From Escherichia coli (lineage in GTDB: Bacteria > Pseudomonadota > Gammaproteobacteria > Enterobacterales > Enterobacteriaceae): a DNA stretch of 349 bases. The stretch is taken from assembly GCF_003334765.1 (NCBI RefSeq), contig NZ_QOWT01000133.1; one strand, written 5' to 3'. Positions 1-349 of this stretch are shown in pieces (within the stretch, counting starts at the first letter, position 1; the number at the start of each line of letters is the position of its first letter). Below the pieces are notes generated by a model, which did not search any database, was not told where the DNA came from, and saw only the letters and a program-made list of their open reading frames with translations. A program made the position numbers and the translations under genes.

Positions 1-225
1 GCTCTGTATCACTGTATTGTCTTCCGGCAACTGATGAGGGCTGGCAGAAGTCGCCGGTGTTTCGGTAGCGTCACGTTTATCCACCACGCGGAGTGAATAA
101 CCGTTTTCAGCGACCTTGTTAATCAGTTCAATGAGATTAACACCATCGACGTCAACGACAATTCGCCCCATGTTCAGCGCCTGCACGTTAACGCTGTCGG
201 CTTCCAGCGTCAGGGCCAGTTTCAT
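1..225 (-). CDS. Hypothetical protein, N-terminal 75 codons (3' end lies beyond window position 1). Compact N-terminal segment followed by a Thr/Pro/Ala/Ser-rich low-complexity stretch. Family not recognised.
   Basis: Minus-strand ATG at complement 223-225, preceded by GGAGG with a 7-nt spacer. An in-frame TAA lies 21 nt upstream of the ATG with no alternative start codon between, so the start is well defined. The frame is open for 75 codons to the window edge: MKLALTLEADSVNVQALNMGRIVVDVDGVNLIELINKVAENGYSLRVVDKRDATETPATSASPHQLPEDNTVIQS. All three plus-strand frames hit stops within the first 100 nt (TGA 32-34, TAG 66-68, TGA 94-96). Codon choice is enterobacterial-like (CTG, GCG, GAA, AAC, CAG). 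Confidence 0.85.
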   Translation of the reverse strand, partial: MKLALTLEADSVNVQALNMGRIVVDVDGVNLIELINKVAENGYSLRVVDKRDATETPATSASPHQLPEDNTVIQS

Positions 226-349
226 TGTTTCGCCTCCGGATGCTTACCCAGAGTAATGTTATTTACTGTTCGGTAATTGTCGCGGGTCATCAGGCCGGTC
301 GCCCTGCGAGCCCGGAGGATATCGATGCTGTTTATTAACTGAGAGCGGG
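222..349 (-). CDS. C-terminal 42 codons of an upstream ORF of unknown function (5' end lies beyond window position 349). Its stop overlaps the downstream start (ATGA).
   Basis: The minus-strand frame is open from the window edge to TGA at complement 222-224: ...RSQLINSIDILRARRATGLMTRDNYRTVNNITLGKHPEAKQ*. The TGA overlaps the downstream ATG by 4 bp (ATGA). The internal ATG at complement 288-290 has no Shine-Dalgarno, so this is more likely the tail of a longer protein than a 22-codon mini-ORF. No competing plus-strand ORF exists. Confidence 0.65.
   Translation of the reverse strand, partial: RSQLINSIDILRARRATGLMTRDNYRTVNNITLGKHPEAKQ
233..237 (-). promoter_or_regulatory. Shine-Dalgarno (ribosome-binding site) for the downstream CDS, embedded in the 3' end of the upstream CDS
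   Basis: Plus-strand CCTCC at 233-237 is GGAGG on the minus strand, followed by the 7-nt spacer CGAAACA and then ATG (complement 223-225). This is a canonical core sequence and spacing. Confidence 0.75.

Follow-up and report, generated by a model that had tools for sequence, protein, structure and literature searches.

An open reading frame at the end of a cbtA-family gene

The DNA analyzed here (the window, 349 nucleotides of Escherichia coli chromosomal DNA that is 100% identical to chromosomes such as that of strain GF43) raises the question of whether the reading frame running off one of its edges belongs to a functional gene and, if so, whether public annotation is right to treat that gene as broken. 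On the minus strand, nt 1-225 translate without a stop as MKLALTLEADSVNVQALNMGRIVVDVDGVNLIELINKVAENGYSLRVVDKRDATETPATSASPHQLPEDNTVIQS, giving 75 codons that are still open at nt 1, as a sequence-only reading of the window had claimed. The ATG at 225-223 is the sole option for a start, the next in-frame stop lying 7 codons upstream with no ATG, GTG, or TTG in between. The length of the ORF was dropped as evidence of a gene, as it is no better than chance: when the window was shuffled 2000 times, 228 of the resulting sequences (11%) had an ATG-initiated open stretch of at least 75 codons. We regard the ORF as real because of its homology, which comprises a match to the Pfam domain DUF5983_N (Table 1), 647 homologous protein clusters, and wide occurrence in E. 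coli: of 5426 complete genomes, 4860 carry related DNA, the median being two copies per genome.

Another minus-strand frame, with the C-terminal peptide …RARRATGLMTRDNYRTVNNITLGKHPEAKQ, closes at TGA 224-222, over the start of the ORF. In a 100% identical record, the corresponding gene is annotated by PGAP as 'TA system toxin CbtA family protein' (WP_000854692.1), CbtA being a cell-division toxin of type IV toxin-antitoxin systems. The toxin gene and the ORF overlap by four nucleotides, stop over start, a geometry typical of translational coupling, and a Shine-Dalgarno-like sequence lies within the toxin coding sequence (Table 1).

Table 1. Features of the window; all lie on the minus strand
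Feature	Position (nt)	Strand	Basis or remarks
CbtA-family (type IV toxin-antitoxin) toxin gene, 3′ end: last 41 codons, ...RSQLINSIDILRARRATGLMTRDNYRTVNNITLGKHPEAKQ, and TGA at 224-222	222..349	-	Translation
GGAGG, Shine-Dalgarno-like, 7 nt before the ATG, within the toxin coding sequence	233..237	-	Read from the sequence
ATGA start/stop overlap: ORF ATG 225-223 over toxin TGA 224-222	222..225	-	Sequence
yeeW-family ORF, first 75 of 140 codons	1..225	-	Ends 198 nt past window position 1; L001 8125-8547
DUF5983_N domain (Pfam PF25638), residues 4-56	58..216	-	E 1.3e-28, 98.8 bits, model 1-55 of 56
Linker, residues 53-75 in the window and on to ~77; Thr/Pro/Ala/Ser-rich	1..69	-	Predicted disordered (pLDDT)

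The ORF joins a DUF5983_N domain to a DUF957 domain

The compact N-terminal segment that the sequence-only reading had described without naming it corresponds to DUF5983_N. Residues 1-52 contain 9 Val, 7 Leu, 5 Asp, 5 Asn, and 3 Gly but no Pro, include the motif GRIVVDVDGVNLIELINKV, and carry E8 and D10 where they had been placed. Residues 53-77, in turn, contain 4 Thr, 3 Pro, 3 Ser, and 3 Ala. The low-complexity stretch DATETPATSASPHQLPEDN is present as reported, although its numbering as residues 53-70 was off by one, and it spans residues 52-70.

That stretch had been taken for an interdomain linker leading to a further domain outside the window, with the proviso that a stop just past position 1 would make it a C-terminal tail. 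In a genome identical to the window, the frame continues for another 65 codons into a DUF957 domain and meets its first stop at codon 141, for a total of 140 codons. Residues 76-140, which lie outside the window, are identical to the annotated DUF957 protein WP_023563519.1, and the C-terminal half of the ORF aligns with stand-alone DUF957 proteins over the conserved region WLQDNIDCES-IIFDNDED-TDS-LLP. Because both conserved parts share one frame, we interpret the Thr/Pro/Ala/Ser stretch as their connector; it totals ~25 residues and is specific to one of the two forms of the gene described below, the short form. The sequence-only reading was also correct in suggesting that this might be a conserved hypothetical protein or one of the DUF type: the window's protein is a member of the already known YeeW/DUF5983_N family and is not novel, and the family to which it was matched is named yet uncharacterized.

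The AlphaFold2 monomer of the ORF had a mean pLDDT of 58 and a pTM of 0.36. The N-domain was modeled as a β-hairpin and a helix at low confidence (pLDDT 27-66, whether alone or in a tandem construct), so that its fold is unreliable, and residues 50-77 had pLDDT values below 50. The C-terminal domain, of ~63 residues, is predicted to be helical; its pLDDT, 51-76 in the monomer, reached 74-85 when a tandem dimer was modeled, a gain confined to this domain, and it is probably a dimer. A Foldseek search of the tandem-dimer model against the PDB yielded only generic helical bundles, none with E below 1, and a PDB sequence search with the family profile gave no match. There was likewise no match to curated families in NCBIfam, to defense systems in PADLOC, to noncoding RNAs when the window was searched against Rfam at E up to 1, or to Pfam-A over the DUF957 half of the ORF.

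From the lack of a Pfam-A match on that half and from the description in a recent preprint, DUF957 is apparently the same family as AntiFam entry ANF00264. According to the preprint, ANF00264 consistently adjoins cbtA/cbeA, is annotated in three ways (as a fusion to DUF5983, after a 'C-terminally incomplete' DUF5983, or separately), and is predicted to form a globular homodimer with a pLDDT of 94.8 and an ipTM of 0.87 (10.64898/2026.06.09.728211). The fused and split annotation patterns of this locus have thus already been described. The family is reportedly listed in AntiFam as spurious, whereas the DUF957 part of the window's ORF is under the strongest purifying selection of its three parts (dN/dS 0.13). 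Our data fit the conclusion of the preprint that this is a real domain, DUF957 being the most constrained part and the one whose predicted confidence increases in the tandem dimer. The genes ykfH and ypjJ were considered as DUF957 proteins, wrongly, as both encode DUF987 proteins.

DUF957-like domains with other extensions were also found without cbtA. One of them, in a Logan contig (SRR22361136; L018 3001-3354), carries a C-terminal extension of ~55 aa (P0175) and lies in a plasmid-like setting, with a Rep3-type gene nearby and with neither cbtA nor DUF5983_N. The domain is therefore not confined to CbtA islands.

Short and long forms of the locus

The gene occurs in two forms, of which the long form is about fourfold commoner (3759 genomes, versus at least 917 with the short form to which the window belongs). 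The long form encodes a 163-aa protein (e.g., WP_000761652.1) in which the N-domain leads through another, Pro-rich linker into the DUF5983 C-domain (PF19419), and DUF957 is a separate cistron in another frame after a short gap, an arrangement seen in E. coli and in the divergent lineage L017. PF19419 has been assigned a glyoxalase/bleomycin-resistance-like fold in a Salmonella survey. The N-domain and DUF957 part of the long form are ~85-95% identical in DNA to those of the window's gene, and both forms lie in the same island context and overlap cbtA by 4 nt; they differ in that the window's gene is without PF19419, which gave no match on the 140-aa ORF in the Pfam search, and has no separate DUF957. 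Where the long form has a middle segment of 361 nt, the short form has 86 nt. As nothing longer than a 7-mer (E 1.6) is common to these segments, the origin of the short form by a simple internal deletion of the sampled long form was ruled out.

The C-domain is also found elsewhere. In GCA_000496755.2 (L010 2774-3094), PF19419 forms a stand-alone 106-aa gene upstream of cbeA, flanked by RadC and CbeA, where DUF987 is normally found; its product is 54% identical to long-form residues 67-162, and the same island carries a short, one-ORF yeeW after cbtA. This suggests that the C-domain acts as a movable module. A rare hybrid was observed in GCA_002154805.1 (MUBQ01000007.1; L007 2501-3203), where a 161-aa protein (P0086) consists of the short linker through 'VMPLTTE' followed by the long-form C-domain, with a separate 'LLTTE…' DUF957 downstream. 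Here, the sequence TTAACCAC[T/A]GAAA stands on either side of the C-domain, at 2735 and 3015, and a deletion between these repeats would give the short form exactly. The L007 locus also contains a duplicated partial cbtA gene (1948-2193).

The eponymous gene of E. coli K-12, yeeW (b2006; L002 3941-4400 in MG1655), lies in the CP4-44 cryptic prophage and encodes a 64-aa protein. It resembles the window's gene in its N-domain, in the type of its linker (…RVVDDRDSTETPATYASPHQL…), and in its overlap with the cbtA stop. It differs by a TAA in the linker, where CCG GAA has become CTG TAA so that the product ends in ...PHQLL, and by the loss of ~93 nt from within the DUF957 part, whereas all 140 codons of the window's gene are intact. 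We view K-12 yeeW as a decayed short-form copy, with the N-terminus MMTLEAD… in place of MKLALTLEAD…. The same CTG TAA stop, at codon 68, is found in L015, whose product ends at codon 67. The stop that the sequence-only reading had allowed for is thus absent at the window's locus but has a counterpart in this minority allele, which, with its stop in the linker, encodes a 64- to 67-aa protein with a tail. Together with the separate DUF957 of the long form, the linker-stop allele indicates that a covalent link between the two domains is not essential.

The short form is under purifying selection and is probably mislabeled as a pseudogene

PGAP annotates codons 1-59 of the ORF as a 'DUF5983 family protein' pseudogene ('incomplete; missing C-terminus') and codons 76-140, which are in the same frame, as a separate 65-aa 'DUF957 domain-containing protein' with a GTG start. 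This split is probably an artifact of comparison with the commoner 163-aa long form. Of seven E. coli copies sampled, with up to 46 differences in 423 nt between them, six had the 140-codon frame intact, and 140-aa forms are found in large database clusters (P0001, 297 members; P0007, 518 members). Using the Nei-Gojobori method summed over pairs of these seven sequences, which are not independent, we obtained an overall dN/dS of 0.22 in the ORF frame, with 0.33 for the N-domain, 0.13 for the C-domain, and 0.25 for the linker, the latter value being indicative only as it is based on ~10 variable codons. In the other two frames, dN/dS was 0.76-6.5. The short-form ORF is therefore under frame-specific purifying selection, and neither a broken frame nor relaxed selection, as expected of a pseudogene, was found.

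More distant relatives were sought among 1.84 billion representatives, of which just 201 clusters matched. P0126, P0130, and P0133 (118-134 aa, 47-56% identity) match the ORF end to end, with an N-domain, a short linker, and DUF957, while their linkers are unrelated in sequence. The island setting is shared by P0130 and P0133, whose genes each begin on the last 4 nt of cbtA (ATGA and GTGA); P0126 has no cbtA upstream. We infer that the pseudogene call is an artifact because a dead fragment would not retain its ribosome-binding site, coupling geometry, frame, and architecture across such divergence.

The main alternative is that PGAP is right, with nt 225-49 being a dead DUF5983 remnant, the junction being open by accident, and only the 65-aa DUF957 protein being functional after translation from an internal GTG or ATG just past the window. 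In keeping with this, all fetched short-form RefSeq records except L015 carry the label 'incomplete; missing C-terminus', the long form outnumbers the short form, K-12 and L015 still carry the allele with a stop in the linker, and an internal ATG (M77) does exist, preceded by a weak GAG. However, the N-domain and linker show low dN/dS values specific to their frame, this frame has remained open in all but one of the diverged copies, the coupling to cbtA through ATGA has been kept, as has GGAGG, and relatives at ~50% identity share the one-ORF layout with other linkers, an accident that would not be expected to recur. We therefore consider it unlikely that the PGAP annotation is correct at this locus.

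Programmed ribosomal frameshifting, which would join the two domains and make the variable annotation a reflection of recoding, has been suggested for ANF00264 (10.64898/2026.06.09.728211), and in database proteins of 203-239 aa (P0047-P0093), DUF5983 is indeed connected to DUF957 by a segment of the C-domain region read out of frame. In these fusions, the frame shifts after 'LGLSK', at a short A run, and their appearance is that of indel variants or of artifacts in sequencing or gene calling, not of conserved recoding. Among them is Aec77 (P0061, 208 aa), which, like the window's ORF, starts with the N-domain and ends with DUF957 but differs in that the two are joined via an out-of-frame stretch of the C-domain region; it probably represents either a frameshift variant or an artifact of gene calling. 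Aec78 (P0102, 80 aa) corresponds to DUF957 itself (both names are those given by the sources to these database proteins). Against recoding, the geometry of the long form is not conserved, with an offset of 2 and an 11-nt gap in L005 versus an offset of 1 and a 19-nt gap in L007; moreover, the long-form DUF957 has its own ATG, and in L005 its frame is closed 22 codons upstream of that ATG. At the window's locus, a frameshift is needless because the two domains already share a single frame, and we regard this explanation as very improbable.

Least probable of all is a stand-alone protein of ~65-75 aa in which the low-complexity stretch is merely a C-terminal tail, as in K-12 YeeW and the L015 product: this is refuted for the window's sequence by the absence of a stop before codon 141 in the identical genome, and the K-12 state is a derived one, having arisen through the CCG GAA to CTG TAA change and the deletion described above.

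The gene follows cbtA in a CP4-44-like island

In strain GF43, the genes are arranged in the order GTPase, Ag43-type autotransporter, DUF905, DUF932, antirestriction, RadC, DUF987, CbeA, CbtA, the ORF, and DUF4942, and the island adjoins the kps capsule cluster. The island that carries the window's ORF is a CP4-44-like integrative island, and K-12 yeeW takes up the corresponding slot. A yeeW-family ORF lies directly downstream of a cbtA-family gene in the window and in L005, L006, L009, L010, and L017, and in relatives at ~50% identity, the 4-nt overlap with cbtA reads ATGA in L009 and L017 and GTGA in L010. In agreement with this arrangement, an independent survey found DUF5983 in E. coli always downstream of CbtA (PMC10790755). 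At the long-form locus of NZ_CP148583.1 (L005 1128-1504), cbtA carries a frameshift according to its annotation, while DUF5983 and DUF957 after it are intact.

The genes cbeA, cbtA, and the ORF lie on one strand, with the 4-nt overlap between the latter two, and a terminator-like hairpin is found only past the ORF. This hairpin, outside the window (L001 8575-8601), begins 28 nt past the ORF stop, has 11 pairs (6 G-C), and is followed by a T-rich tail, which suggests that the cbeA-cbtA-yeeW unit ends there. A promoter-like site and the DUF4942 gene (L001 8632-9474) come next; the DUF4942 protein matches PHROG families, one of which is annotated as DNA methyltransferase (phrog_6263, E 3.6e-15).

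A phage origin of the ORF was also considered and rejected in favor of an integrative-island gene, as the PHROG search gave no match and a phage collection contained a single match to the window. The latter, OR844783.1 ('Escherichia phage ECO111 5-P'), is an unannotated 3.2-kb sequence that is 90.5% identical to window positions 9-249; it is probably a fragment of a similar type of island and not a true phage genome.

A putative accessory of CbtA/CbeA

Taken together, these results place the 5′ part of a yeeW-family gene in the window and make it likely, in our judgment, that this gene is an intact two-domain cistron following cbeA-cbtA and that its division by PGAP is an artifact. Through translational coupling, the product would be cotranslated with the toxin in stoichiometric amounts. 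The protein is acidic and would be soluble and cytoplasmic; the cytoplasmic location that had been proposed from the sequence fits a pI of 4.4, a net charge of -13, and the absence of a hydrophobic segment, and the same charge makes DNA binding unlikely. If the C-terminal domain dimerizes as its predicted structure suggests, it may present two N-domains on flexible tethers. More speculatively, from the position of the gene, the protein could be an accessory partner of CbtA/CbeA that, for instance, binds or modulates the toxin or its cytoskeletal targets.

Third components are known from tripartite toxin-antitoxin modules, such as the SecB-like chaperone of TAC systems and PasC of pasABC. The yeeW-family gene resembles them by analogy, being an extra small cistron encoded together with a toxin-antitoxin pair, but no sequence or fold relationship between them and the YeeW-family ORF was found. 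Our literature search found no experiment on YeeW-family proteins. A published study of the toxin-antitoxin pair, which does not mention yeeW, found no autoregulation of the operon by either CbtA or CbeA and described the trigger of toxin activation as not known (PMC5371832). This lack of autoregulation and the constant adjacency of the genes make the yeeW-family gene a candidate for a missing partner. A tentative and rather doubtful extension of this idea is that the DUF5983_N-linker-DUF957 protein is a dimeric, toxin-coupled third component of CbtA/CbeA modules that binds or tunes CbtA or its targets FtsZ/MreB.

The useful outcome of this analysis is the correction of an annotation and a testable picture of a three-gene cbeA-cbtA-yeeW unit, with no new kind of system involved. 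The correction would concern the short form in at least 917 complete E. coli genomes, the RefSeq pseudogene label being attached to every fetched record but one. Should the third-component proposal hold, the 'type IV' CbtA systems would really consist of three parts, one of which public annotation would systematically hide, by labeling the gene a pseudogene in PGAP and half of its product spurious in AntiFam.
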